A stretch of DNA of 59,525 nt, filler included. It is 9 parts of 9 records of this genome, joined end to end, with 100 filler letters (N's around TTAATTAATTAA, not from the genome) between each part and the next. Parts side by side here need not be neighbours in the genome. Positions count along the whole stretch, not along the records: positions 45,767 to 51,264 come from SRR31156797_129514; 8 more parts are not named here. The stretch is one strand, 5' to 3'. Position numbers and translations under genes: made by a program. The notes beneath the pieces were generated by a model. The model was not told the origin of the DNA and searched no databases. It was given only the letters and a program-made list of their open reading frames with translations. Positions 3,621 to 52,509 of this stretch are shown piece after piece; within the stretch, counting starts at the first letter, position 1; the number at the start of each line of letters is the position of its first letter.

Positions 3621-4280
3621 ATGGATAAAACTGTTCTTGATAGAATTAATGAACATGAAAAAAAATTCAGCCTATTGGCCAAAAACCTTGTGGACGGCAT
3701 CTGGGTTGTGGACATTGATACGCTGAAATATGTCTATATAACCCCTGGAACCGAAGTTTCCAGGGGGTATGAGCGAGGCGAACTTATTAACATGTCGCTC
3801 AAGGACGTCATGGTTCCGGCTTCATTTGATACGGCGATGAAGGTTCTCATTGAGGAACTGAAAAACTATGAAAAAGATCCGGAAGCCAGTCGGGTCATAG
3901 AACTGGAGATGTATAAGAAAGACGGGACCACGACCTGGGTTGAAATCACGGCTCGCTTTTATACAGAAAACGACGGAACAATCAGGCTCATAGGCGTTAC
4001 CAAGGATATTAATCGCAGAAAGCTGTTTGAATTGGACCAGAAAGAGGTCATAAGGCAGCTGGAGGAAGCTTTAGAGGAGCAAAAAAGGCTGTTAAAAGAA
4101 AACAAGATATTGCGAGGACTCCTGCCGATATGCGCCGGTTGTAAGAAAATTCGCGATAAAGAGGGGAAGTGGTGGCCCGTTGAAGAATACATCGCTTCAA
4201 GAACCGAGGCTGATTTCACGCATACGATCTGTCCTGAATGCAAGGTGAAGTATTACCCCGATATTGGTAAAAAAATTTAA
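3621..4280 (+). CDS. PAS domain protein with C-terminal Cys/His putative zinc-binding domain
   Basis: PAS/PAC (ELEMYKKDGTTTWVEITA..GVTKDI), coiled coil, LLPICAGCKKIRD..FTHTICPEC. Confidence 0.85.
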   Translation: MDKTVLDRINEHEKKFSLLAKNLVDGIWVVDIDTLKYVYITPGTEVSRGYERGELINMSLKDVMVPASFDTAMKVLIEELKNYEKDPEASRVIELEMYKKDGTTTWVEITARFYTENDGTIRLIGVTKDINRRKLFELDQKEVIRQLEEALEEQKRLLKENKILRGLLPICAGCKKIRDKEGKWWPVEEYIASRTEADFTHTICPECKVKYYPDIGKKI

Positions 4281-4308
4281 ACCTGGATAACCCTTTGGAG
4301 GATGAATC

Positions 4309-4719
4309 ATGGATAAAGATGAAATCAGGGCGCAACCCAAGTTTGAACTGCTTCTCGAAGAAAATGTGGATAAATTCAACCAATTGGTCAAGGCCGGCAA
4401 GGTCCCGGATATGAAAAACGCCAACCTGGCCGGACTCGATCTGAGAAAGGCCCATTTAAGAGGTCTCGACCTGACGGGTTGTTACATGAGGGCAACCAAC
4501 CTGCGGGGCGTGGACATGACCGGTTGCAATCTCTTCGGCGCCAGTATGCAGGGCGCCATGATAAGCGGAGCCCTTTTCCCAAGCAATGTTCCCATGGATG
4601 AGATCAGGTTGTCTGTGGAATACGGCACTCGTATTCGGACTTTGCGCATGGGCGACGATTTAAAGAAAATTATGTCCATTTTGGGCGAGATTCATGAGTT
4701 GTTATTAAATATGAATTAA
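4309..4719 (+). CDS. Pentapeptide repeat protein
   Basis: A(N/D)LxG-type repeats: ANLAG LDLRK AHLRG LDLTG..TNLRG VDMTG CNLFG ASMQG. Confidence 0.85.
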   Translation: MDKDEIRAQPKFELLLEENVDKFNQLVKAGKVPDMKNANLAGLDLRKAHLRGLDLTGCYMRATNLRGVDMTGCNLFGASMQGAMISGALFPSNVPMDEIRLSVEYGTRIRTLRMGDDLKKIMSILGEIHELLLNMN

Positions 4720-4761
4720 CCTTCAATGCCATTTTAGAGCTTTGAAAAAACCGAATTCAAA

Positions 4762-4781
4762 CCCCGCGGCCGGCCGCGGGG
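4762..4781. terminator. Perfect 20-bp palindrome CCCCGCGGCCGGCCGCGGGG between convergent genes
   Basis: Self-complementary sequence located between two stop codons. Confidence 0.5.
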
Positions 4782-4784
4782 GCC

Positions 4785-7577
4785 TTAATTCATCATCGGC
4801 GGTCCGCCGTTTTTATTCATTACCTTTTTGATGGTCCGGGCTATATCGCTCATTAAAATGGGTTTCATTATATAGTCGCGGATACCTATTTCCCTGGCTT
4901 TTTCCATGGATATAGTCTGGCTGAATCCGGTGCACAATATTATCGGCGTCTCGGGCGCTATTTCCAAAATTGCTCTCGAAAGCTCATTGCCGGTCATGTT
5001 GGGCATTGTCTGGTCGGTAATAACAAGGTCGAATCGTTCGGGCTGCGCCCGAAATGCTTCAAGCGCCTCCACACTGCTGGTTCTGCTTACAACTTCGTAC
5101 CCGAGCCTTTTTAGTATTCTTCGCCACATATCGACCAGGGCTTCCTCATCATCTACCAGAAGAATTCTTCCGCTTCCCTTTTCCAATGGCGCTACGGTCT
5201 GGCTGTGGATGGACTCCCTTTCCTCGCATATGGGAAGGTATACGGTAAAGGAAGCCCCCCTGCCATGTTTGCTCTCCAGGATTATCTCGCCGTTATGGCT
5301 TTTCACTATACCGTGAACTATGGCCAGGCCCATTCCCGTCCCTTCATCAAGGGGTTTGGTAGTGAAATACGGATCGAATATTCTGTGTTGAATTTCGTTT
5401 TTTATTCCATGCCCCGTGTCGGATACTTTCAACATCAGGTATTGCCCCGAATTGAGTTCAGCCCCGACGAGAGGATGATTTTTACTGATTTCAACCCGGT
5501 CAAGTTCTATGGTCATTTGCCCGCCGTTGTCTTTCATGGCGTGCGCGGCGTTCGTACACAGGTTCAATAAAAGCTGGTGAATTTGGGTCGGATCGCCCAT
5601 AGTCGTATCGGATTCGGCTTTCAAATCCGTGATTATTTCTATGGTCGACGGGAGCGAGGCCCTTAACATTTTCAATGCTTCTTTCACAATAGCCGTCATC
5701 AGAACCGGTTTAAGCTCCTGTTCGGTCTGGCGACTGAAGGTAAGGATATGGCTGACAAGTTCGGCGGCGCGATCTCCGGCGTTTAAAACCTGTTCCAGGT
5801 AATAATTAATTTCGGAATCTTTCTCCGCATCCTGAAGCGCGAGTTGAGTATAGCCGATTATTGCTCCCAGAATATTGTTGAAATCGTGGGCGATCCCGCC
5901 GGCCAGAGTTCCAATGGCTTCCATTTTCTGGCTTTGTCTTAGTTGCCTTTCCAGGGATTTTTCCTTGGTGACATCCCGTTTCACCGCTACATAATTGGTA
6001 ATGGCGCCCTTATCGTCCATTATGGGCGAAATCGTCATTTCCACGTCATAGTCAAATCCGTTTTTATTTTTATTGGTTATTATTCCATGCCAGACTTTCC
6101 CGGATTTTATTGCGTTCCACATGGCATTATAAAAAGAAGGGCCGTGTTTGCCGCTTTTAAGCTTACTGGATGTACACCCGATGATTTCTTCCCGGCTAAA
6201 CCCTGAAATTTCCTCAAAGCCGGGATTAACATATTGAATGACGCCGTTTTTATCCGTGATGCATATACTCTCGGCTGCGTGCTCAACCGCTGTGAATAAT
6301 AGAATATGCGCCTGTTCCGCTTTCTTTCGCTCGGTGATGTTTTCAAAAATGGCTACAAAATATCCCTTGGCCGGAGAATAAATCGTTTGGGAATACCAAC
6401 TGTCCAGGTCTTCCGAATATTCTTCAAAGCAAAGCGGCTCCCCATGAATGGCCACGCGGCCGTACGTTTCTATCCAGTTGAAAGGAGATACGGTCATATC
6501 GGGCATGACTTTAGACACCTTTTTACCTACCACCTTTTCCCTTTTTAGGCCGGTCATCTCCTCGAACTTGTCATTGACTTCCAGGAAAATGTAATCAACA
6601 GGTTCATCATTTTCATCCAGGACTATTTTATGGTAAGCGACTCCATTTATCATGTTGCTGAATAGTGAATGGTAATTGGCTTCGGTTTCCTTCATTGCCT
6701 TTTCAGCCTGTTGGCGCTCCGCAATTTCCTTTTCCAGTCTGATATTGATCCTGCGCAAATCAGCAGTGCGTTGTGCTACTCGCTGTTCCAGTTCTTTATG
6801 GGCTTTACCGAGTTCTTCCGCAGCTGCATCCCTGTCCCTGATGTTTTTTCTTATGCTGTGAAAGGATAGCAATATTACGGAAAGGCCGAATAAAAATATT
6901 ATAATATGTGAAAACGCATGTCTGATTATTATTCCGTCGCGTTTTGAAAAAAAACGATCTAAAGGCATGGAAACGCTAATACCGCCGCTTATACTTCCTA
7001 TTTTCTTATTATGATTCCGGTGACAATTCAGGCAAGATTCCTGAAAATGAATCGGTTTCATCAGCCTGAGCCTGGGACTTTTTTCAGTTGAAATGATTTC
7101 GGTGACTTCCCTTGTACCGCTGTTTAATAATAATAACGCCTCTTTTTCCCATTCATCCGGGGCGTTTTCCGGAGCCAGATGATTAAGACTTGTTACATGA
7201 CCTTTAATCCCGTACACTTTTTCATGTCTGTTCATGGTTGCCCGAACCATATTGGCCGGATTCAAAAGCGTCAGCTTTCGACCCGAAGGCGTAACTACAT
7301 CGCGCTCTTCCAAATGAGCCATGAGCGGATTGGGTTGAACATCGTCTTTTACCGGAACATACACGCCGCCATGGGAAGCTCCCCACATCCGAAAGGCCAT
7401 GTCCTTGTTATATACCGCCCTGGCCTCCATTAAGGCCATATCATAATAGGCCTGCCTGAGCTGGCCGACGTCCATGATGAACAGAATGCCCACCATCATG
7501 GTCCAGATCAGGACGGTGCAGATAATATAAGGCGCAAGATTACTACGCTTGGGCTGGTGATTTATATCAAACATCAA
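4785..7577 (-). CDS. Hybrid sensor histidine kinase/response regulator with periplasmic DUF3365-like c-heme domain and two PAS domains
   Basis: Two TM helices flanking a domain with CLNCH; PAS x2; GIAHDFNN H-box; DTGHG, FTTK, GTGMGL; C-terminal REC (LLVDDE, DQTMP, KP). Confidence 0.9.
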   Translation of the reverse strand: MMFDINHQPKRSNLAPYIICTVLIWTMMVGILFIMDVGQLRQAYYDMALMEARAVYNKDMAFRMWGASHGGVYVPVKDDVQPNPLMAHLEERDVVTPSGRKLTLLNPANMVRATMNRHEKVYGIKGHVTSLNHLAPENAPDEWEKEALLLLNSGTREVTEIISTEKSPRLRLMKPIHFQESCLNCHRNHNKKIGSISGGISVSMPLDRFFSKRDGIIIRHAFSHIIIFLFGLSVILLSFHSIRKNIRDRDAAAEELGKAHKELEQRVAQRTADLRRINIRLEKEIAERQQAEKAMKETEANYHSLFSNMINGVAYHKIVLDENDEPVDYIFLEVNDKFEEMTGLKREKVVGKKVSKVMPDMTVSPFNWIETYGRVAIHGEPLCFEEYSEDLDSWYSQTIYSPAKGYFVAIFENITERKKAEQAHILLFTAVEHAAESICITDKNGVIQYVNPGFEEISGFSREEIIGCTSSKLKSGKHGPSFYNAMWNAIKSGKVWHGIITNKNKNGFDYDVEMTISPIMDDKGAITNYVAVKRDVTKEKSLERQLRQSQKMEAIGTLAGGIAHDFNNILGAIIGYTQLALQDAEKDSEINYYLEQVLNAGDRAAELVSHILTFSRQTEQELKPVLMTAIVKEALKMLRASLPSTIEIITDLKAESDTTMGDPTQIHQLLLNLCTNAAHAMKDNGGQMTIELDRVEISKNHPLVGAELNSGQYLMLKVSDTGHGIKNEIQHRIFDPYFTTKPLDEGTGMGLAIVHGIVKSHNGEIILESKHGRGASFTVYLPICEERESIHSQTVAPLEKGSGRILLVDDEEALVDMWRRILKRLGYEVVSRTSSVEALEAFRAQPERFDLVITDQTMPNMTGNELSRAILEIAPETPIILCTGFSQTISMEKAREIGIRDYIMKPILMSDIARTIKKVMNKNGGPPMMN

Positions 7578-7633
7578 TACGCCTCGCTCCTGAAGGCTTC
7601 CCCCGGACCAAATGTCCGGGGGCGGGATCAGGC

Positions 7634-8069
7634 TTAAAAATCGTTGAAATCCTCATCCATAGGCAACGCTTTTTCCGCTTGCACTATGCTGATTTTGTTT
7701 CTGCTTCCGCCGGAATACGCGCCGTCGGATGCTATATTCCTTGTGTAGTTAGGTGTAGTAATCCTGGAAGAGGCGCCCGCGCCATTTCTTTCTTTCAGGG
7801 CGGCGCCTACGAGTTTAAGCATCACTTCCACGCTTTCCTTCATGGACTGCGACTGGGCATTAAGTTCTTCCGATGCGCTGGCCGATTCTTCGGCGTTAGC
7901 GGCATTTTGCTGAGTGACCTTGTCCATCTGGGAAACCGCTTCATTCACCTGCTCTATGCCCTTGGCCTGTTCCTGGGATGCCGCCGCTATTTCATTCACC
8001 AGTTCGGCTACTTTATTCGCGCTGGTTGCTACTTCGCCGAAAGCTTCGTCCGTTGTTTTAACCAATTGA
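7634..8069 (-). CDS. Methyl-accepting chemotaxis protein, C-terminal fragment (5' truncated)
   Basis: IAAASQEQAKGIEQVNEAVSQMDKVTQQNAANAEESASASEEL methylation helix; C-terminal DFNDF pentapeptide-like tail. Confidence 0.9.
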
Positions 8070-8169
8070 NNNNNNNNNNNNNNNNNNNNNNNNNNNNNNN
8101 NNNNNNNNNNNNNTTAATTAATTAANNNNNNNNNNNNNNNNNNNNNNNNNNNNNNNNNNNNNNNNNNNN
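8070..8169. other. Artificial contig spacer N44-TTAATTAATTAA-N44
   Basis: Identical 100-bp spacer occurs eight times; composition changes across it. Confidence 0.98.
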
Positions 8170-8193
8170 CCCCGGCCGGTCCCGGTACAGGAT

Positions 8194-9567
8194 CTATTCG
8201 ACGATGATGATCTCGTCGCCGAGTTCGGACTGCAGTTCCTCGATGACGAATTCGGCGCCTTCCTCGGCCGACAGGCGGCCGGTCTCGACACCCTGGATGC
8301 CCTTGTAGACGATGGCGTTGTAGGGGCCGATCTTCTGATGGTTGGGCATGAAGGTGGAATAGGGCAGCATCTTGGTGCCTTCACGCAAGGCCCAGCCGTC
8401 CTGGACGAAATCCGGCATCGCGGCCTGGCCGAAATTGATCGGTGTGTGGCCCGACGATACCGCGTGTTTGGTGTTCGGCACGTGCTGCGACGCCAGCGCC
8501 ACGACCATGGCCGACAGATCCGGGTGCTGGGACTTGCTGCTGACGACGTAGATGATCGGGTGCGACAGGTTGGCCGGGCGGCCGCCCTTCTTGCCGGCCG
8601 GGCTGTGGATCCAGCCCAGTTCGTTGAAGTAGGAGGCCTTGGTCAGGTTCATGATCTTTAACTGATGGGGAACGTTCCAGATGCCGTGGAACTTCATGAA
8701 GCTCTCGCGGCCGCGGAAGGCTTGGTGCACGGAATCCCAGGACCAGGAGGTCATGTTGCCCGGCAAGGCGCCCTTGTCGACGCTGTATTTCAGCCACTTG
8801 TAGAATTCGGTCAGGCCGGACTTCGACATCTTCAACTTGCCGGTTGCCTCGTCCGACGGCTCGATGCCGAAGGAAGCCAAGGCCATCAGGAAGTCGGGAC
8901 CGACGTTCGGGCGATGGATGAAGCCGTATTTTGCGGCGCCTTTCGAAACCACCTCGGCGGCCAGATCGGACAGGTCGTACATGGTGAATTCACCGCTTTC
9001 GACCTTGGCCGGCAGACCTTCGATGAAGTCCTCGGACTTGCCGATCTTGCGCAGCATTTCCTTGTTGTAGAAGAACATGCGCACTTCCGAATCCTGCGGA
9101 ATGCCGTAACGCACGCCCTTGTATTTCACCGAATTCCAAAGGACCGGAATGATGTCGCCGTAAAGGTCCTCGTTGGAATTGATGTGGTTTTCCATGTTCA
9201 TGGTGTAGCCGGCCTCGGTGAAGGCGCCGATCCATTCGTGGGCGGCGACGTAGATGTCCGGCCCCTTGTCGGCGGCAAACGCTTTCATCAGGTCGAGGGC
9301 ATCGGCGTCGAAGCCCTTGGCGTTGTTTTCGTGGACGTCGATTTTCAGGGTCTTGTCGATGCCGGCGGCAGCAAACATGTTGTTCAGCGTCTTGGCGGCA
9401 TTGACGATATTCGCCGTGCGCATCGGGCCGGACCGGTCGGCGCGGCTCCAAAGTTTCAGGGTGACGGTGTCGGCGACGGCCGTACTGATCGCCGGACCAG
9501 TCAACATGGCGGCGACCGTCGCCGCCGCCAATGTCTTCGCCAAGGCATTTCGTTTCAATACTGTCAT
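8194..9567 (-). CDS. Sugar-type ABC transporter substrate-binding protein
   Basis: Signal peptide ending AVA-D; GPDIYVAAHEWIG, YGIPQDSEVRMFFYNKEML; ATG at 9567 follows GGGAG (track start 9684). Confidence 0.85.
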   Translation of the reverse strand: MTVLKRNALAKTLAAATVAAMLTGPAISTAVADTVTLKLWSRADRSGPMRTANIVNAAKTLNNMFAAAGIDKTLKIDVHENNAKGFDADALDLMKAFAADKGPDIYVAAHEWIGAFTEAGYTMNMENHINSNEDLYGDIIPVLWNSVKYKGVRYGIPQDSEVRMFFYNKEMLRKIGKSEDFIEGLPAKVESGEFTMYDLSDLAAEVVSKGAAKYGFIHRPNVGPDFLMALASFGIEPSDEATGKLKMSKSGLTEFYKWLKYSVDKGALPGNMTSWSWDSVHQAFRGRESFMKFHGIWNVPHQLKIMNLTKASYFNELGWIHSPAGKKGGRPANLSHPIIYVVSSKSQHPDLSAMVVALASQHVPNTKHAVSSGHTPINFGQAAMPDFVQDGWALREGTKMLPYSTFMPNHQKIGPYNAIVYKGIQGVETGRLSAEEGAEFVIEELQSELGDEIIIVE

Positions 9568-9930
9568 GGTTCTCGCTCCCCAGATGTCATGCGATTCGTC
9601 CAAACTGGACGGTGCAATTCGAACACGGCGCGACTCGATCCGCCGAAACGGTGGTTTGCCGAGGACCGACCGACTATCGGCCACCGGACCACTGCCATCG
9701 CGTTTCGACGCGTCCGAACCGTGTCACGGACGCATCGGTTTCCGTGCCCTCCCGTTCTAAACGCGCAGCCATGACAGATTTTTTAAACTTTGTTGAAGAA
9801 TAAAATATCAGTTCCTTTTTATGCACAGAGTTGCAATTTTATTTCGTGCGGATAGGGTGGCGGCGGCGCCTATCGGGCCGTGACTTGGGGCTTGAATACG
9901 CTCGCTTGCCGATTTGAAGGCCGGATGCCA

Positions 9931-11190
9931 ATGAGCCGGAAACGGAGGTCGAATATCTTGAACATTGGCATTCACGCCGGCACCAATGTCGAACAGACTC
10001 GCACCTACAACCGGCGCGCCGTGTTGCAGGCCATACGGTTGGGCGGGCCGATTTCGCGGCCGGAACTGGCCGACCTGACCGGGCTGACGGCGCAGACGGT
10101 TTCGATCATCACCCGGGAATTGATCGAAACCGATCTCATCGAAATTGCCGGCCGGCGGCAGGGTCGCCGCGGGCATCCGGCCGTCGAACTGCAGATCAAT
10201 CCGTCCGGTGCCTTCGCCATCGGCGTCAGCCTCGATCAGGATCGCATCGTCATTCTGCTGGTTGATCTGCAGGGAAACATTCATCACCGCCTGAGTCTGA
10301 AGACGGATTTTCCGCCTCCCGAAACAGCGCTTCCCCTGATCGCCGAGAGAATCACCCAAATGGCGGCGACGGATCCGGAACGGGCCGGCAAGCTGCTGGG
10401 CATCGGCATGGCCGTTCCCGGCCGGTTGAGTTTGAACCATGAACTGGTTATCCCGCCGAGCCGATTGCAGGCCTGGAACCAGGTGCCGATCGTCTCGCAT
10501 CTGTCCGCGGCCACCGGCCTTCCGGTGATCCTGGAGAACGACGCCAACGCCGCGGCCGTCGGTGAAAGCCTTTACGGGGTCAGTCGGGGATTTCAAAATT
10601 TCGTATACGTTTTCCTGGGCGCCGGCCTTGGCTGCGGAATCATGACGAACGGCTTTCCCTATCGCGGGACGACCGGTTTCGCAGGCGAATTCGGATTGTT
10701 TCCAACCGATGGCGGGAACCCCGCGGGTCAAGGATTCTCGGGGTTGTCCGATCACGTTTCCCTGTTTCAGCTTTGTGCCCGGTTGAAGGCGCGCGGCTAC
10801 GGGGCCGTCCGCCCGGAGGATTTGCAGGAGCTGTGCGAATCTGCCGATCCATGCGTCGAAGAATGGCTCGACGAGGCCTCTTCGCTGCTGTTTCAGCCGA
10901 TCCAGGCGCTGCAATGCCTGCTCGATCCGCAGGCCATCCTGTTCGGCGGCCCGGCACCGTCGATCCTGATCGACGCCCTTTTGACGCGCCTGGAAATCAG
11001 GCTCTCGGAAATGACCGAAAATCGCTTGATCGCGCCGAAACTGATGCGGGCGACGTCCGGCGAAGACGCTGCCGCCCTTGGCGCCGCCGTACTGCCGGTA
11101 TATGACGCCCTGTCGGCCCATCCCGACGCCTTTCTGAACCGCGCCGTCGGCCGTGCCGCGCCGCTGGGATCGGGGAGTTTTTTTTCGTAG
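9931..11190 (+). CDS. ROK family transcriptional regulator (NagC/XylR-like)
   Basis: HTH ISRPELADLTGLTAQTVS; ENDANAAAVGE, GAGLGCG, GFAGEFG; exact start uncertain. Confidence 0.9.
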   Translation: MSRKRRSNILNIGIHAGTNVEQTRTYNRRAVLQAIRLGGPISRPELADLTGLTAQTVSIITRELIETDLIEIAGRRQGRRGHPAVELQINPSGAFAIGVSLDQDRIVILLVDLQGNIHHRLSLKTDFPPPETALPLIAERITQMAATDPERAGKLLGIGMAVPGRLSLNHELVIPPSRLQAWNQVPIVSHLSAATGLPVILENDANAAAVGESLYGVSRGFQNFVYVFLGAGLGCGIMTNGFPYRGTTGFAGEFGLFPTDGGNPAGQGFSGLSDHVSLFQLCARLKARGYGAVRPEDLQELCESADPCVEEWLDEASSLLFQPIQALQCLLDPQAILFGGPAPSILIDALLTRLEIRLSEMTENRLIAPKLMRATSGEDAAALGAAVLPVYDALSAHPDAFLNRAVGRAAPLGSGSFFS

Positions 11191-11227
11191 TGTGAAGCGG
11201 CAGCCTAGGGAAAAAAAGAGGAACCGG

Positions 11228-12151
11228 ATGAAGTTCGTCACCCTCAACATGCAATACGGCCTCGGCAAGGACGGCAGATACGACCTCGCCCGAACGGCGG
11301 AAGCGGTGCGCGGCGCCGATGTCATCGCCCTGCAGGAGGTCGAACGCTTCTGGCAGCGTTCGGGCAATGTCGATCAGGCCGCCGACCTGGCCGATATGTT
11401 CGACGGTTATTACTGGGTCTACGCCCCCGGCCTCGACATGGACGCCGGATTTATGGACGACGACGGCAGGCTGATCAACCGCCGGCGCCAACATGGGGTC
11501 ATGCTGATGGCCCGCCGGCCGATCATTTCGACCCGCACGTTCCCGCTGCCGAAATGGGGAACCCGGGTTCAGCACAGCCTGCAACTGGTCCTGCTGGAAG
11601 GGGTCATCGAGACCGCCGCCGGAGCGATCCGTATCTTCACCTCGAAGCTCTGCCACCTGGTGCCGGAAACCCGCCTGCCGCAGATCGAATTCATTCTCGA
11701 TATCCGCCAACGGGCGGCACGCGAAGGCGGCGCCTGGTGCGGCGGCCACCCGAATTCGCAATCGGGCTGGGTCGAGGGAACCGAACCGCCGATGCCGCGG
11801 GATCTGATCTGGCTCGGCGACATGAACTTCCGGCCCGATTCGGCCGAATACGACCGCATCGTCGGTCCCTTTTCGGCCCATCACGGCCGCCTCAACAACC
11901 GCGACGGCCTGATCGACGCCTGGGTGGCTGCCGGCCACACGGAAAACGACGGCATCACCCGTCCCGGCATGACCGATCCCCTGGAACCCGGGCGCACCAT
12001 CGAAGCCAGGCTGGATTACGCCTTCGTAACGCCGGCCCTGGCCGAGCGCGTCACCGATGCCCGGGTCGATGCACAATCGCAGGCATCCGATCATCAGCCG
12101 GTCTGGTTCGATTTGGACCTGGAAAGCCCGACCCCGGTTTTGGGCGCCTGA
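11228..12151 (+). CDS. Endonuclease/exonuclease/phosphatase (EEP) family hydrolase
   Basis: VTLNMQ, DVIALQEV, LGDMN, RLDYAF, SDHQPV; GAGGA RBS. Confidence 0.88.
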   Translation: MKFVTLNMQYGLGKDGRYDLARTAEAVRGADVIALQEVERFWQRSGNVDQAADLADMFDGYYWVYAPGLDMDAGFMDDDGRLINRRRQHGVMLMARRPIISTRTFPLPKWGTRVQHSLQLVLLEGVIETAAGAIRIFTSKLCHLVPETRLPQIEFILDIRQRAAREGGAWCGGHPNSQSGWVEGTEPPMPRDLIWLGDMNFRPDSAEYDRIVGPFSAHHGRLNNRDGLIDAWVAAGHTENDGITRPGMTDPLEPGRTIEARLDYAFVTPALAERVTDARVDAQSQASDHQPVWFDLDLESPTPVLGA

Positions 12152-14583: not shown

Positions 14584-14683
14584 NNNNNNNNNNNNNNNNN
14601 NNNNNNNNNNNNNNNNNNNNNNNNNNNTTAATTAATTAANNNNNNNNNNNNNNNNNNNNNNNNNNNNNNNNNNNNNNNNNNNN
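14584..14683. other. Artificial contig spacer
   Basis: N44-TTAATTAATTAA-N44. Confidence 0.98.
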
Positions 14684-23170: not shown

Positions 23171-23270
23171 NNNNNNNNNNNNNNNNNNNNNNNNNNNNNN
23201 NNNNNNNNNNNNNNTTAATTAATTAANNNNNNNNNNNNNNNNNNNNNNNNNNNNNNNNNNNNNNNNNNNN
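23171..23270. other. Artificial contig spacer
   Basis: N44-TTAATTAATTAA-N44. Confidence 0.98.
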
Positions 23271-28812: not shown

Positions 28813-28912
28813 NNNNNNNNNNNNNNNNNNNNNNNNNNNNNNNNNNNNNNNNNNNNTTAATTAATTAANNNNNNNNNNNNNNNNNNNNNNNNNNNNNNNN
28901 NNNNNNNNNNNN
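28813..28912. other. Artificial contig spacer
   Basis: N44-TTAATTAATTAA-N44. Confidence 0.98.
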
Positions 28913-34270: not shown

Positions 34271-34370
34271 NNNNNNNNNNNNNNNNNNNNNNNNNNNNNN
34301 NNNNNNNNNNNNNNTTAATTAATTAANNNNNNNNNNNNNNNNNNNNNNNNNNNNNNNNNNNNNNNNNNNN
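34271..34370. other. Artificial contig spacer
   Basis: N44-TTAATTAATTAA-N44. Confidence 0.98.
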
Positions 34371-39826: not shown

Positions 39827-39926
39827 NNNNNNNNNNNNNNNNNNNNNNNNNNNNNNNNNNNNNNNNNNNNTTAATTAATTAANNNNNNNNNNNNNNNNNN
39901 NNNNNNNNNNNNNNNNNNNNNNNNNN
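39827..39926. other. Artificial contig spacer
   Basis: N44-TTAATTAATTAA-N44. Confidence 0.98.
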
Positions 39927-45666: not shown

Positions 45667-45766
45667 NNNNNNNNNNNNNNNNNNNNNNNNNNNNNNNNNN
45701 NNNNNNNNNNTTAATTAATTAANNNNNNNNNNNNNNNNNNNNNNNNNNNNNNNNNNNNNNNNNNNN
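45667..45766. other. Artificial contig spacer
   Basis: N44-TTAATTAATTAA-N44. Confidence 0.98.
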
Positions 45767-46037
45767 ATCTGTAGGGAGAGATGAAAGAAACAAGTGTTGC
45801 AACGCCATTTTTTGATAACATTCCGGCAATAAATGTTACTCTCCTTATATTCTCGGTTCTGTCTTCCTTGGAAAAACCCAGGTCCTTGCAGAGATCTTCC
45901 CTGACAATATCTCCGTCAAGTCTCTGAACATAACCTATTTGTCTTCTATCCAGTTCTTTCTCAAGAGCCGTTGCAATAGTTGTTTTTCCAGCCCCTGACC
46001 AGCCAGTAAACCATAGTGTAAATCCTTCTTTTAGCAT
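45767..46037 (-). CDS. cysC: Adenylyl-sulfate (APS) kinase (3' truncated)
   Basis: [41 protein letters not shown]. Confidence 0.93.
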
Positions 46038-46055
46038 GTCTGCACCCACACAGTA

Positions 46056-46844
46056 TCAGTCTTCTTCAATACTTTGTATCTTTATAGATGATAAATCCAG
46101 CCCATTCCCTATGACAATAAAGAAATTATTAAGCAATGATTCCTTGTTATATTCCGGTTCTTTCATTGTTTTGAGGTCCAGAAGCTTGCAGCCTGCTTCT
46201 TTTGCAATGATATGTCCTGCTGCGATATCCCACTCCATTGAACCCTGGAATCTTGGATACAGATGTGCATATCCCATGGCAACTCTGCAGAACTTAAGCG
46301 AAGAACCGGCAGAAACTACGTCATCAATATTGTTCATCTGCATAAACTTTGCATCCATTTCTGTTGCATGCTTTCTGCTTCCTGTGGCAATCAGTTTGTC
46401 TGATTCAATTTCAGTAACAGGTAGTTTTTTGATGCCATCTGAATCTTCCACATATGAACCAAAGCCTTCTGCAGCAAAAAAGGTAACACCGGTGGCAGGC
46501 ACGTGTATAACTCCCATGCTTGGTTTTTTATCCTTCATGTAAGCAATATTCACTGTAAACTCGCCACTATCTTCAATAAATTCTTTTGTCCCATCCAGCG
46601 GGTCAACAAGGAAAAAATCATCATAAGTCTTTCTGATATCGTAACCTGAGTACTTTTCCTCAGAGGTTATTGGAATATCCCATCTCTCCTCAAGTTTCTG
46701 TGCTATGTATTTATCAGATTCGAGATCAGCTTTAGTTAAAGGGGAATCGTCCGCTTTTTTCTTAATACCTTTTTCGGGGTCATTGTAATATTTCAGAATA
46801 ATGTCTCCGGCACCCCTGGAAATATGAATCATTTCCTCCAGCAT
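46056..46844 (-). CDS. cysQ: 3'(2'),5'-bisphosphate nucleotidase
   Basis: KADDSPLTKAD, SEE, VDPLDGTKEF, GSSLKFC, EWDIAAG; start uncertain (track 46958). Confidence 0.92.
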   Translation of the reverse strand: MLEEMIHISRGAGDIILKYYNDPEKGIKKKADDSPLTKADLESDKYIAQKLEERWDIPITSEEKYSGYDIRKTYDDFFLVDPLDGTKEFIEDSGEFTVNIAYMKDKKPSMGVIHVPATGVTFFAAEGFGSYVEDSDGIKKLPVTEIESDKLIATGSRKHATEMDAKFMQMNNIDDVVSAGSSLKFCRVAMGYAHLYPRFQGSMEWDIAAGHIIAKEAGCKLLDLKTMKEPEYNKESLLNNFFIVIGNGLDLSSIKIQSIEED

Positions 46845-47159
46845 TTTAGGAATTTTACTGTTGTTCACGTTTTTATCTCTTTTAATTGTTGCAATATAAA
46901 ACACATCTTTTAAGATACGAGACTTAATAAATCTAGTATCATTATATAAAGAAGACATATTTATAGATATTTAATACATTTTTAAAATATTAGACTTAAT
47001 GATGCCATAGTTTTGTGAGATCACCAAATTAGAATTTTAGCTTAAATTTAAATGCCTACTTAAATACTTCGCCAATTGATCCAAAATCTCTCAAAAACGA
47101 GTTTAGAAATAGCTGGCATAATCAAAAAAACACATCATATATTTTTCTTGGTAAAATAT

Positions 47160-47178
47160 AAGTAAAGCTTATATTTTA
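47160..47178 (+). promoter_or_regulatory. Putative archaeal BRE-TATA promoter
   Basis: Purine-rich AAGTAAAG followed by CTTATATT, about 150 bp upstream of the ATG at 47319. Confidence 0.45.
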
Positions 47179-47199
47179 AGACCGCAATAAAAAATTAAG

Positions 47200-47300
47200 G
47201 AGTCATTCTGACCCGGGAGCGGCAGGGGGAGATAGCAGGTACTGCAGAGTGTAACTCTCAAAAATAACCCGACGCAGACCTGTTCCTGTCCATTTGACAA
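47200..47300 (+). ncRNA. Candidate structured 5' leader RNA
   Basis: GC-rich island in an AT-rich intergenic region; closing stem 47221-47231/47280-47290 encloses two hairpins with GTA loops. Confidence 0.35.
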
Positions 47301-47318
47301 AACATTGGAGGAAAAATT

Positions 47319-49013
47319 ATGGGATGGTTTGATGTTGTAGCAGGCATCGCTACAGGTGGATTATATACAGCAGGAAAAGCAATCTATCAGGCAGGAAATG
47401 CAGCGGAAGAGGCAGGAGAAGCAGCCGAAGAAGCAGGTATGGCAATTGCAGTTATCGGTTCGACCATACAGGCTGTCGGCGAGCAGTTGACCTCTACATT
47501 GAAGGAAGCAGAGGAACTCCTGATGATACAGAGACTGACACCAAGAAGTGAGGCAGACCTCTGGGATGAGGAGAAAGAAAGACTTGATGACCTCAGAAAA
47601 GAAAAGAAACGTCTTGAGGACAAACTAAAGGATAAAGGAGTTACTAATACAGGTAGCTTTGATTTCAATTTCTGGGATATAATCTCAGACTTCAGTGATG
47701 TGATAGAGAACTTCCAGCTCATGGCAAAACTGGCGGCCGTGAACCAGGAGATACACGATATATTCTATCAGGAGCCGGGTGTTGTTACAACAGGTATCTA
47801 CAACGCCAAGGAGGTCCTTGAGCGTTTCAACACCATCGAGCAGCCCATGATAGAAGACATCATGGCATCCCTTGATGAAAATCTGGACGTCAGTGAGGAG
47901 GTGCTTCAGGAAGTAAAGAAGCTCTTTGTGACTAAGAAAAAAATACCGATAGCTATCGCGGACCTCAGTCCTTCCATAAGGGATCACCTGGACATGATCC
48001 AGACTGACAAACTCTACTATGAAGGACTCATTTCACGAAAGGACACAGTCACAGCACAGCTTGGCGACATAATGAAGGTCCATCCCGTTAACAAGTTCGA
48101 GATAGCTGCGGGAGCTATCAATGTTCCAAAAGACTTCATCTATGCCAGCAGTGTCCTTGATGATGTCATAGATGCGACAAAGATACTCGACAACATAGAT
48201 ATAGCCGACTCCATAAGGGACAATACCGATGTCATAGACAGGGTCGATGACAGGGATATCAGTGCTGGTGTGGGAAGGGCCGATGCGATCAGAGAAACTG
48301 AGGATATAAGGGACAGCATCAGGGGCAATGTGAACATAAGGGACTCTGTCAGATCATTCGATTCAACAGAGAGGGCCGTCAGGAATATGGCGACTTCCCG
48401 TCCTGTGGTGAGAACATCAGCCACAACCAACGCAACAGCCAAAAGCAGCACAACGGCTTCAGCTGGTGCAAACAAAGAAATAACTACCATCTCTGCGGCC
48501 AACATAGCCAGACTTGCAACATCGGTCAGGAAAGGTCCTTCCACTTCCATGTCCATGATGCAGCCATACGGTGCAAAGATATCCGCATCCCTGAGTACTA
48601 AGTTCGATGGATACCAGCGTAACTATGACCTTATGAAGGCGCAGAAGGCATTCTACTTCAGACAGACCCTCAAGATGGAGAAGAAATACGAACTCCTTTC
48701 CAACAAATGGGTAGAAGAACCAGGAATCATCCCCAAGACGCTGGACGAACTGCACGGTGTGCTTCACAATGTCAGGACAGAGGAACAGCCACGCATCGAT
48801 CAGGTTCTTGATAATGTCAATGCGACCCTTGAAGAAGCACAGGGAACCGTTGAGAAAGCCAACGATACTATGGATTCCGTGAAGAATGCTCTTTCAATAC
48901 TGGACTTTGATACAAAGTACCTGAAACTGGGAGGCATGGTCATTGGCGGATTGATAGTCCTTGACCTTTTCGTAGGATTTATAGTGCTCATAAGGATGGC
49001 ACTGGGAGTATAA
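47319..49013 (+). CDS. Uncharacterised 564-aa helical protein with internal duplication and C-terminal TM anchor
   Basis: Long ORF, GGAGG RBS, consistent codon use; no family recognised. Confidence 0.85.
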   Translation: MGWFDVVAGIATGGLYTAGKAIYQAGNAAEEAGEAAEEAGMAIAVIGSTIQAVGEQLTSTLKEAEELLMIQRLTPRSEADLWDEEKERLDDLRKEKKRLEDKLKDKGVTNTGSFDFNFWDIISDFSDVIENFQLMAKLAAVNQEIHDIFYQEPGVVTTGIYNAKEVLERFNTIEQPMIEDIMASLDENLDVSEEVLQEVKKLFVTKKKIPIAIADLSPSIRDHLDMIQTDKLYYEGLISRKDTVTAQLGDIMKVHPVNKFEIAAGAINVPKDFIYASSVLDDVIDATKILDNIDIADSIRDNTDVIDRVDDRDISAGVGRADAIRETEDIRDSIRGNVNIRDSVRSFDSTERAVRNMATSRPVVRTSATTNATAKSSTTASAGANKEITTISAANIARLATSVRKGPSTSMSMMQPYGAKISASLSTKFDGYQRNYDLMKAQKAFYFRQTLKMEKKYELLSNKWVEEPGIIPKTLDELHGVLHNVRTEEQPRIDQVLDNVNATLEEAQGTVEKANDTMDSVKNALSILDFDTKYLKLGGMVIGGLIVLDLFVGFIVLIRMALGV

Positions 49014-51264: not shown

Positions 51265-51364
51265 NNNNNNNNNNNNNNNNNNNNNNNNNNNNNNNNNNNN
51301 NNNNNNNNTTAATTAATTAANNNNNNNNNNNNNNNNNNNNNNNNNNNNNNNNNNNNNNNNNNNN
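51265..51364. other. Artificial contig spacer
   Basis: N44-TTAATTAATTAA-N44. Confidence 0.98.
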
Positions 51365-51516: not shown

Positions 51517-52221
51517 CTACTTTCTAATAACCCTGGTGCTGCATATTCTGTCGTGAAGGGTTCGCTTCTCATCATCAAAGCCGGCCATGATATAACCTAT
51601 AAATAAAATCATGGCTGAAATCATTTCGGCAAAATGTCTTCCCAGGGCGCGGAGATAGCTGACCCGGCCCCCGTCGTCGACCACTATTTTGATCTGGCAG
51701 GCCAACTTGCCGACGGTTGCGCCGTACTTGCCCACGAAGAAAGTGGAATATACGGCGAAAATGACAATTTGTAAGACATTGAGGATTATAACCGCGGCTA
51801 TTTCGGAGGCGGCCTGCATCAAAAATACCGTCCCAAAAGAAAGGACCATCTGGACAATAGTGAGGATAATGTAGTCTATCACCTTGGCGCCGAATCGAAG
51901 CCAGAAGCCGGCGTAATCCATTGCTCCGGGCAGGGCTACGCCTTCCTTGATTTTCTGGACGAACGCCGGCTTGCAGGTCGCGCAAACCCAGGAGCCGCCG
52001 TAATGAATCATGTCTTCCTTTGAAAAAAGGCGTCCGCATTGACTGCAGGCGGCGTTTTCGCCGTTAAGCTCCTGCAGGCTGCCGTATTCAACCCAGTTTG
52101 ACATGCCCGGCTGCCAAACCAGCGTGGTTGCCGTTATATGTCCGGACCTTATCTTTGATTGAAATTCTTCTTCGCTGACCGGACCGATCTGCCGTCCTTC
52201 ATCGGCATAATGCCATTGCAT
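51517..52221 (-). CDS. RDD family protein with N-terminal GYF_2 (DUF4339) domain and zinc ribbon
   Basis: WHY..GPVS..TLVWQPGMSNW; CSQC..CATC; YAGFWLRFGAKVID, GATVGK, LHDRICST. Confidence 0.9.
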   Translation of the reverse strand: MQWHYADEGRQIGPVSEEEFQSKIRSGHITATTLVWQPGMSNWVEYGSLQELNGENAACSQCGRLFSKEDMIHYGGSWVCATCKPAFVQKIKEGVALPGAMDYAGFWLRFGAKVIDYIILTIVQMVLSFGTVFLMQAASEIAAVIILNVLQIVIFAVYSTFFVGKYGATVGKLACQIKIVVDDGGRVSYLRALGRHFAEMISAMILFIGYIMAGFDDEKRTLHDRICSTRVIRK

Positions 52222-52509
52222 TATTTCCTCCAAAATGCGTCCCTTTCAGGCTGTTAGACGTGATCTGAAGCCTGAACTCAGGGAAAAGTAATGACTTGTA
52301 GCAAAATAGTTGTCGCATATCCCCCGGTTGGAATTATTCCCCAATGTCGTTCGGACTGTAAAGCGCGCGCGCCCCATTGATGCTGCGCTGGTTTCCGGGG
52401 GCCGTAATAATAAAAGAGCGAATCGCGGAACCGGTCGGGGCCGGGAAGGCGAATTCATTACTGAAATACTAAAACATGAAATTAAGGACTGAGAATAAAG
52501 CGCGTTTGA

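Follow-up and report, generated by a model that had tools for sequence, protein, structure and literature searches.

The window examined here is 59,525 nucleotides of DNA in which nine contigs are joined by spacers of 44 N, TTAATTAATTAA and 44 N, rather than one continuous stretch of a genome. The gene under study lies on the contig at 45767-51264 (5498 bp), where a complete open reading frame (ORF) at 47319-49013 on the plus strand encodes a protein of 564 amino acids plus stop (P0001). It belongs to a conserved single-copy family whose features are a repeat module, a membrane anchor and a fast-evolving insert. An initial annotation had described the product as an orphan, probably archaeal, tail-anchored protein with the architecture of a fusogen or pore-former; the ORF itself proved real, with a GGAGG motif at 47307-47311, 8 nt ahead of the ATG. 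The parts of the protein, with confidence in the AlphaFold2 model given as the predicted local distance difference test score (pLDDT), are as follows.

47319-47390, plus strand: conserved N-terminal peptide, residues 1-24 (family alignment; model pLDDT below 50)
47373-47522, plus strand: predicted Gly-stripe helix, residues 19-68 (3.5-residue periodicity; low model confidence)
47499-47927, plus strand: module 1, residues 61-203 (hhalign repeats and model; pLDDT mostly 55-89)
47928-48086, plus strand: first arm of module 2, residues 204-256 (strand 204-210 and helix 218-254; pLDDT 83-95)
48087-48563, plus strand: fast-evolving low-complexity insert, residues 257-415 (length and identity comparison; pLDDT below 50)
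48564-48902, plus strand: return arm and third helix of module 2, residues 416-528 (hhalign; pLDDT 76-92)
48927-49004, plus strand: C-terminal transmembrane (TM) anchor, residues ~537-562 (hydropathy; model helix 533-561)

The protein is not an orphan. A word-indexed search returned 122 homologous proteins at E ≤ 0.001, the closest of which, from Methanolobus sp. WCC4, is 88% identical. An exhaustive HMMER scan of 1.84 billion representatives yielded 91 clusters at E ≤ 0.001, 68 at E ≤ 1e-10 and 41 at E ≤ 1e-30, and a scan of species genomes gave 55 genomic loci, including GoM-Arc1, Methanoculleus and other Methanomicrobiaceae. The named sources of homologues are Methanolobus, Methanococcoides, Methanohalophilus, some Methanosarcina, an ANME-2 archaeon, Candidatus Syntrophoarchaeum caldarius and Methanogenium. 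On these comparisons, the protein belongs to an uncharacterised family whose members occur in Methanosarcinales, ANME-2, Syntrophoarchaeum and Methanomicrobiaceae. The suspected archaeal origin was borne out by the closest homologue and by the ClpB fragment on the same contig, which shares 91-94% protein identity with its Methanolobus counterparts; at the DNA level, the stretch that begins 12 nt upstream of the ATG and reaches the contig end matches Methanolobus loci at 75-83%. Because both the ClpB fragment and this stretch match the genus, the contig is best described as Methanolobus-like. Of 229 genomes of at least 80% completeness in the same order as a Methanolobus reference genome, 56 carry the gene, always in one copy. 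Homologues of 43-44% identity also occur on metagenome-assembled genome (MAG) contigs labelled Anaerolineae, Pseudomonadales and Brevefilum (L038, L041 and L046); these contigs are probably mis-binned archaeal ones, and the genes not bacterial.

As the initial annotation had supposed, no recognised family claims the protein: none reached threshold in Pfam, NCBIfam or a profile search of the PDB. Pfam gave nothing above cut-off for the protein and nothing consistent across 29 family members (alignment A1), and NCBIfam gave no family above threshold. PHROGs returned no match at E below 0.0076, the remainder being coiled-coil noise, and PADLOC returned coiled-coil noise only (best E 0.00036, BrxC). 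The family profile searched against all PDB sequences reached a best E of 0.29; parainfluenza F heptad peptides at E 0.38-0.57 in this search were taken as coiled-coil noise. DUF2240 (E 0.00094, below cut-off) was rejected as spurious, as it falls in the low-complexity insert and in 2 of 29 members only. ESM Atlas contained no usable match to the whole protein or to residues 61-262, and Pfam found no informative fused domain in 25 distant homologues. Fused or longer forms were absent among proteins of 988-2820 residues, which is weak evidence. Among sequencing runs listed as containing the sequence, none is of RNA, one of DNA contains it in full and may be the source sample, and two from salt marsh contain small shares. 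In the sources examined, members are labelled solely 'hypothetical protein', with the exception of P0045, which bears the automatic name 't-SNARE coiled-coil homology domain-containing protein'. No paper was found under the locus tags Mpsy_2750, SCAL_000073, LI82_08785 or RE476_01220 in a search that did not extend to supplements, where proteomic tables are kept. Listings and the opening parts of abstracts on tail-anchored or coiled-coil proteins in these genera likewise contained nothing on the family.

Slices of the family alignments, compared profile against profile in hhalign, exposed internal repeats. Residues 149-202 match 464-517 (99.2%, E 7e-20), and with a deeper alignment residues 137-200 match 449-515 (99.5%, E 1.7e-22); residues 61-105 match 196-240 (94.8%, E 5e-8). 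These matches indicate that the body of the protein is two tandem copies of one module, each with a turn bearing a nearly invariant E-P-G, followed by a helix bearing a nearly invariant E-Q-P and many conserved polar residues. The initial annotation had arranged the same regions in the order of a class I fusogen (fusion peptide, HR1, linker, HR2, TM); a better account is that one module was duplicated in tandem and that an insert lies at the tip of a hairpin. Some close homologues carry one to three extra 33-residue copies of a LDELHGVL..RTEEQPRID unit, and three distant homologues, P0139, P0159 and P0150, differ at the N-terminus and contain three or four modules. Because homologues vary in the number of modules and of 33-residue units, the family is a modular repeat family. 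In one Brockarchaeota-labelled locus (L050, 7860-9634), the gene is split over two overlapping frames of 393 aa and 240 aa, which could be a frameshift or a sequencing error.

Conservation follows this plan. In alignment A1 and in A2 (148 of 202 proteins, those of 380 aa or longer), conservation is high at residues 1-260 and 416-564 and poor in the stretch between them. R72, R76, E85, Y150, E152, P153, G154, E168, R169, N171, E174, Q175 and P176 are nearly invariant, as are the further polar residues D498, N501 and E506. So many fixed polar positions suggest a specific fold or binding surface, not a generic coiled coil. The heptad run that had been noted at residues 475-528 is partly upheld: 3.5-residue periodicity is present and is strongest in residues 492-528, but the run is not continuous, being interrupted by the nearly invariant P491 just before that segment.

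An AlphaFold2 model built from 148 sequences (mean pLDDT 61, predicted template modelling score 0.35) is mostly helical, in keeping with the long helices of the initial annotation, and its secondary structure fits the repeat analysis. Confidence is mostly 55-95 at residues 70-260 and 76-92 at residues 430-520. Module 1 is modelled as a strand (69-71), a helix (83-105), a 12-residue tip, a helix (118-150), the EPG turn (151-154, with a strand at 151-153) and a helix carrying the EQP motif (155-203). On the return side of module 2, a helix (428-461) leads through the EPG turn (strand 462-468) into a helix with the EEQPRID motif (470-525). An exhaustive structural comparison against 48,161 PDB representatives placed nearly all matches on model residues 213-467. 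The best was the CHMP4B hairpin (4abm_A; Z 10.4, root-mean-square deviation 1.6 A over 79 residues), and other top rows were Wadjet JetC, SMC/Rad50 arms (Z 9.7-9.9), the seryl-tRNA synthetase arm and prefoldin. As these matches span both helices (model residues 217..461), helices 218-254 and 428-461 are predicted to pair as an antiparallel hairpin; a hairpin in the monomer model had been named in advance as a check, and it is there. The tool itself cautions that the mere arrangement of helices commonly gives helical models a Z of about 13-14. Foldseek gave no match at E ≤ 0.001 against the PDB (either model) or BFVD.

Between the two arms of module 2 lies the insert, which in the model takes the place of module 1's 12-residue tip loop and so sits at the tip of the module-2 hairpin. 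It ranges from 0 to 218 residues in length (median 132; 148 homologues), is rich in Ala, Ser, Thr, Pro and Ile and poor in Leu and aromatic residues, and is probably disordered. Within Methanolobus, the flanks are 84-95% identical, whereas the insert is 52-59% identical in six of seven close homologues and reaches 81% in the seventh and closest, P0002. The insert holds D-[IV]-R-D-like repeats and a stretch at residues 359-392 that had been described as a Ser/Thr-rich linker. The composition is correct (15 of 34 residues are Ser or Thr), but the stretch is part of the hairpin-tip insert and not a linker.

The predicted tail anchor was confirmed by hydropathy. Kyte-Doolittle 19-residue windows above 1.6 start only at residues 534-546 (spanning 534-564), with a maximum of 2.78 at residue 540, and the TM helix is followed by about 5 residues to the C-terminus. 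Windows at the N-terminus reach 1.0-1.15, with a net charge of -1 or 0 and no basic n-region. By hydropathy, the protein thus has a single TM helix near the C-terminus and neither a signal peptide nor a second TM helix, which defines it as tail-anchored. The helix 470-525 runs through a linker of 8-11 residues into the TM helix (537-562), in which G538 (123/148), G543 (119/148), G544 (112/148), R/K559 (145/148) and also G553 are conserved. From what is established for tail-anchored proteins, a hydrophilic N-terminal part of 535 residues that carries no signal should remain cytoplasmic. Because there is no signal peptide and a single C-terminal anchor, the bulk of the protein would face the cytoplasm.

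The N-terminus, GWFDVVAGIATGG, is Gly-rich and hydrophobic and lacks a basic n-region, as first reported. Its counts refer to 124 homologues, out of 201, in which TGG[LAMIV]Y occurs within the first 80 residues, the other 77 being fragments or distant forms; TGG and Y16 are therefore present in 124 of 124 by selection of the set. The start codon can be regarded as fixed, because 107 of the 124 begin exactly at this N-terminus and so have the peptide at the very start of the protein. Conservation of the peptide among homologues had been proposed as a check, and it was found, with a consensus of M-[AG]-W-x-D-[VW]-V-x-G-[VI]-x-T-G-G-L-Y-[TN]-x-G-K-x-x-Y and with W3 in 112, D5 in 120, G9 in 117, G19 in 120, K20 in 122 and Y23 in 114 of 124. 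The initial annotation, drawing on the sequence of the influenza HA2 fusion peptide, had noted a G-x-F-x-x-x-A-G-x-x-x-G-G spacing. This spacing is present at residues 2-14 and has 0 matches in 667 unrelated ORF products (190,775 residues), but the full pattern survives in just 36 of the 124 homologues. The HA2-like positions vary: 50 of the 124 have G at position 2, 38 have F at position 4 and 52 have A at position 8. Conservation within the six-letter pattern is confined to G9, G13 and G14. Modelled as a helix, residues 2-19 have a mean Eisenberg hydrophobicity of 0.56, a hydrophobic moment of 0.21 and a net charge of -1, values that do not describe a typical membrane-seeking amphipathic helix. 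The positions that are conserved, W3, D5, T12, Y16, K20 and Y23, do not make up a generic fusion-peptide signature and suggest specific packing or binding.

Behind the peptide, Gly recurs at an exact 7-residue spacing (G19, 26, 33, 40, 47 and 54), kept in 113-131 of 148 aligned sequences. The AEEAG repeat of the initial annotation, found here as AAEEAG(E)AAEEAG at residues 28-40, falls within this predicted helix. A stripe of small residues in coiled coils is a mark of very close helix-helix packing, and by analogy the Gly stripe would imply close packing here. In a profile comparison, residues 8-70 align in register with residues 153-205, the turn and third helix of module 1 (E 4.9e-4, probability 32%), such that A8-G9 sits on P153-G154 and the match runs on to the first strand of the next module. 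If this weak alignment is real, the 'fusion peptide' would be a degenerate copy of the protein's own EPG turn element. A Walker A reading of G14-x4-G19-K20 (47358-47381, residues 14-21) was rejected: at residue 21, 86 of the 124 have A and 34 have T or S, and K20 is lost in the distant homologues P0145 and P0161. The model, helical and with neither a central sheet nor a P-loop fold, likewise argues against a P-loop nucleoside triphosphatase.

The gene stands alone, as the initial annotation had it: no deeply conserved neighbour accompanies it across the loci of the family. In 18 loci, nearly all of them Methanolobus or Methanolobus-like MAG contigs, it lies tail-to-tail with ClpB, and in many of the 18 Hsp20 and a thermosome subunit come after ClpB. 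Methanolobus loci (L001-L021 and L030; for example, L002 at 3667-11941) read MMPL transporter, TrmB-family regulator and target, followed on the opposite strand by ClpB, Hsp20, thermosome subunit and DEAD-box helicase. In 9 of 11 loci, the TrmB-family regulator, with DUF7436, is the nearest upstream gene on the same strand. ClpB is a neighbour in the window too, where cysQ and cysC, on the other strand, stand in place of the upstream regulator. Elsewhere the neighbours are FMN reductase and DUF134 (Methanococcoides), a DNA alkylation repair enzyme and an ABC ATPase (Methanosarcina) and a hydantoinase (an ANME-like group). In Methanococcoides, the gene and ClpB are about 1 Mb apart. Across the order, ClpB is present in 145 of 229 genomes, 49 of the 56 with the target gene and 96 of the 173 without it. 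Co-distribution with ClpB as a functional link was rejected on these counts, as 7 of 56 carrier genomes lack ClpB and 96 of 173 target-less genomes have it. We take the chaperone neighbourhood to be genus-level synteny and at most a weak hint of a stress link.

The other features of the contig are these.

45767-46049, minus strand: truncated adenylylsulfate kinase gene (cysC)
46056-46958, minus strand: CysQ-like gene of the inositol-monophosphatase family
47169-47311, plus strand: putative promoter and leader (TATA-like box, conserved leader blocks and GGAGG)
49113 to the contig end, minus strand: truncated ClpB gene

Upstream of the ORF, a TATA-like TTATATTTT at 47169-47177, about 142 nt before the ATG, precedes a leader of roughly 115 nt; the position of the transcription start is a predicted one. 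Two blocks of the leader, about GGnACTTnCAGA and CTGTTCCTGTCC, are common to Methanolobus, Methanococcoides and Methanohalophilus loci and could be a binding site for a regulator. Consensus structure prediction for the leader RNA gave 0 pairs, and its single-sequence fold was no better than shuffles (z = 0.35). The sole Rfam match on the contig, RsmY inside the cysC fragment, was sub-threshold (17.3 bits vs a gathering score of 57).

The spacers of the window occupy these positions.

8070-8169, spacer
14584-14683, spacer
23171-23270, spacer
28813-28912, spacer
34271-34370, spacer
39827-39926, spacer
45667-45766, spacer
51265-51364, spacer

The contig with the gene has a G+C content of 0.449, and the pieces adjoining it have 0.60 and 0.52; the nine pieces span 0.45 to 0.62. 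Because this piece is Methanolobus-like while most of the others are at about 0.60, the record may be a mixed bin. The next contig holds a 238-aa ORF (51517-52233, minus strand) whose product has a Cys-rich region, GYF-like or zinc-ribbon-like, at its N-terminus and hydrophobic segments at its C-terminal end.

We favour, with something short of even confidence, a reading in which the protein is a membrane-tethered scaffold or spacer on the cytoplasmic face of the membrane, from an undescribed archaeal family. Its one C-terminal helix would hold it in the cytoplasmic membrane, leaving the other ~535 residues on the cytoplasmic side. This part would consist of two tandem modules, each made of a strand, two helices, the EPG turn and a long helix with the EQP motif, and a degenerate half-module may stand N-terminal to them. 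The long hairpin helices of module 2 would reach away from a membrane-proximal head and carry the variable insert at their tip. The conserved head and the N-terminal peptide would make specific protein contacts, with the protein itself or with a partner, and the tip would serve as a flexible extension tolerant of changes in length. The gene, its family, the repeats, the anchor and the variable insert are shown by the data, and the hairpin is predicted by a model of moderate confidence; the cytoplasmic orientation, the close packing along the Gly stripe, the specific binding by the conserved polar head and the peptide, and the scaffold role are inferred.

Several points weigh against this reading. 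'Scaffold' is a weak and generic function. No gene neighbour is informative on function, and synteny is kept within genera only. The patchy distribution shows that the gene is dispensable for most relatives. The structural matches point to a generic hairpin and not to kinship, the best Z of 10.4 being below the noise level of ~13, and residues 1-61 and 274-424, the latter range covering most of the insert, have a pLDDT below 50. The orientation is deduced solely from hydropathy and the missing signal peptide. Moreover, a full-length Get3/ArsA-type insertase was not seen in four carrier genomes (G001-G004, the genomes of L002, L008, L047 and L053), where the ArsA/Get3 profile matched only in part, over the first 30-132 of its 305 positions, as is typical of generic MinD/ParA-type P-loops.

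Foremost among the alternatives, and in our judgement unlikely, is a protective role in membrane stress. During heat, cold or salt stress the protein, with its amphipathic helices and tail anchor, would then stabilise or repair the membrane in the manner of PspA/Vipp1, ElaB/YqjD or DUF948/apolipoprotein-like proteins, though unrelated to them. The neighbourhood in 18 loci, where ClpB is joined in many cases by Hsp20 and a thermosome subunit and where a TrmB-family regulator lies just upstream, speaks for such a role, as does the ClpB kept in the window, but the synteny is confined to genera, the two genes lie far apart in Methanococcoides and the co-distribution with ClpB is loose. The membrane-proximal helix shows weak, sub-threshold similarity to DUF1664, to apolipoprotein families and, in 6 of 29 members, to DUF948 (best E 0.0014). 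However, such matches to DUF948 turned up in 11 of 14 control genomes as well, so they are non-specific, and DUF948 matched the target gene in 0 of 4 tested genomes. A confident match to DUF948, MCE or apolipoprotein families, which the initial annotation had said would overturn its view, was not found. ESCRT-III hairpins are among the top structural matches, but these lie below the helical noise level.

An accessory gene of mobile, viral or defence origin has a low probability; its product might then be, for example, a membrane effector, or diversifying pressure might act on its variable tip. The patchy occurrence, the change of neighbours from genus to genus and the hypervariable central region would suit this origin. 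The gene is nevertheless single-copy and keeps its place throughout Methanolobus, the conserved neighbour clusters examined include no integrase, transposase or defence genes, and the PHROG and PADLOC searches described above offer no more than noise.

Next in rank, and also improbable, is a membrane-remodelling machine on the cytoplasmic face. The anchor and the N-terminal peptide would engage the membrane at two points, and the modules and the hairpin would fold back to bend, bridge or sever it, for example in division or vesicle release in methanogens and in methane- and alkane-oxidising archaea. If true, a hairpin mechanism like that of SNAREs or class I fusion proteins would have been invented independently in a lineage without ESCRT.

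We consider it very improbable that the protein is a fusogen or pore-former, as the initial annotation had proposed, with a membrane-active N-terminal peptide and helical hairpins that pull membranes together or form a pore. The peptide is highly conserved, opens the protein, with a small residue directly following Met, and is hydrophobic over residues 2-19; the TM helix and the N-terminal region are both Gly-rich with conserved small-residue motifs; the model contains a helical hairpin; and IpaB, XaxAB and YaxB chains are among the structural matches (Z 8.9-9.6). Against this, the residues that are conserved suggest packing or binding, the HA2-like pattern is kept in a minority of homologues, and the peptide aligns with the protein's own EPG turn. 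Its hydrophobic moment is 0.21 and it has no positive charge. Lacking a signal peptide, it should be cytoplasmic, and no second membrane with which it could fuse there is known from these organisms. The pore-former matches are within noise and cover the generic hairpin only, and no fusogen, SNARE or toxin is linked to the protein above noise, whether by sequence or, at E ≤ 0.001, by fold. The likeness to a viral fusion peptide looks coincidental, and the fusing or perforating function is left without positive support.

Least probable of all is a SNARE- or syntaxin-like protein whose helical bundle, membrane-proximal helix and tail anchor zipper with partners: the outline is alike (a helical N-terminal domain, a helix beside the C-terminal anchor and a short tail) and P0045 carries its automatic t-SNARE name, but no SNARE, syntaxin or synaptobrevin Pfam family matched P0001 at E ≤ 1 or P0045 at E ≤ 10, the nearly invariant P491 lies inside the membrane-proximal helix, that helix repeats an internal module, and one copy per genome, with no paralogues, provides no set of cognate partners. 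The probability that these readings leave over belongs to a function we did not anticipate.

Much of the world's methane cycling depends on Methanosarcinales, ANME-2, their alkane-oxidising relatives and Methanomicrobiaceae, whose cell biology is poorly known. The family is a concrete candidate for a membrane-associated function in methane-cycling archaea.

Set beside known systems, the protein first recalls small tail-anchored helical proteins. Escherichia coli ElaB and YqjD, which we take to be C-tail-anchored members of DUF883 and which are represented here by the Pfam models alone, share with DUF948 and the target a cytoplasmic helical region that ends in one membrane helix. DUF883 reached only a sub-threshold E of 0.43 in P0045, and DUF948 (PF06103) scored 11.9 bits (E 0.26) on the target, missing its curated cut-off of 37.2 bits. 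The target is four to five times longer than these proteins, and has a duplicated EPG/EQP module, a large insert and a conserved N-terminal peptide.

With ESCRT-III proteins (CHMP4B, Snf7 and Shrub) and SMC/Rad50 arms, the protein has in common a generic two-helix hairpin, on residues 218-254 and 428-461. Unlike theirs, its hairpin arms are separated by an insert of ~170 residues, and it has neither the SMC/Rad50 ATPase head nor ESCRT-III helices 3-5. The Snf7 and PspA_IM30 Pfam families gave no match at E ≤ 1, and the structural matches (Z 9.2-10.4) are to the hairpin only. Matches to alpha-pore-forming toxins of the ClyA/XaxAB/YaxAB kind (6gy6_A, Z 9.0; 6ek8_A, Z 8.9) similarly cover the hairpin only, over residues 214..467 and below the helical noise level.

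Class I fusion subunits of the influenza HA2 type resemble the protein in a Gly-rich hydrophobic N-terminal peptide with similar Gly spacing, in their helices and in a C-terminal TM segment. They are made from signal-peptide precursors by cleavage, whereas the ORF described here starts at the peptide and has no signal, and their ectodomain contrasts with its predicted cytoplasmic orientation. Its would-be HR1 and HR2 are repeats of one module, and the pattern is conserved in a minority of homologues; the monomer model has a hairpin, and Foldseek gave it no match to a class I fold in BFVD or the PDB at E ≤ 0.001.

The host lineages of the family are not, to our knowledge, equipped with endomembranes. 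Syntaxin-type SNAREs, including the SNARE-like proteins described from Heimdallarchaeota (bioRxiv 10.1101/810531 and 10.64898/2026.10.19.760048), share a tail anchor directly after a helix and a helical N-terminal domain. The target differs in having no SNARE-motif profile match, a conserved Pro within the helix and a single gene copy. What is new is the repeat module, with its EPG turn and EQP helix, and a family that matches no described one; the kind to which it belongs, that of membrane-anchored helical-repeat proteins, is a known one.

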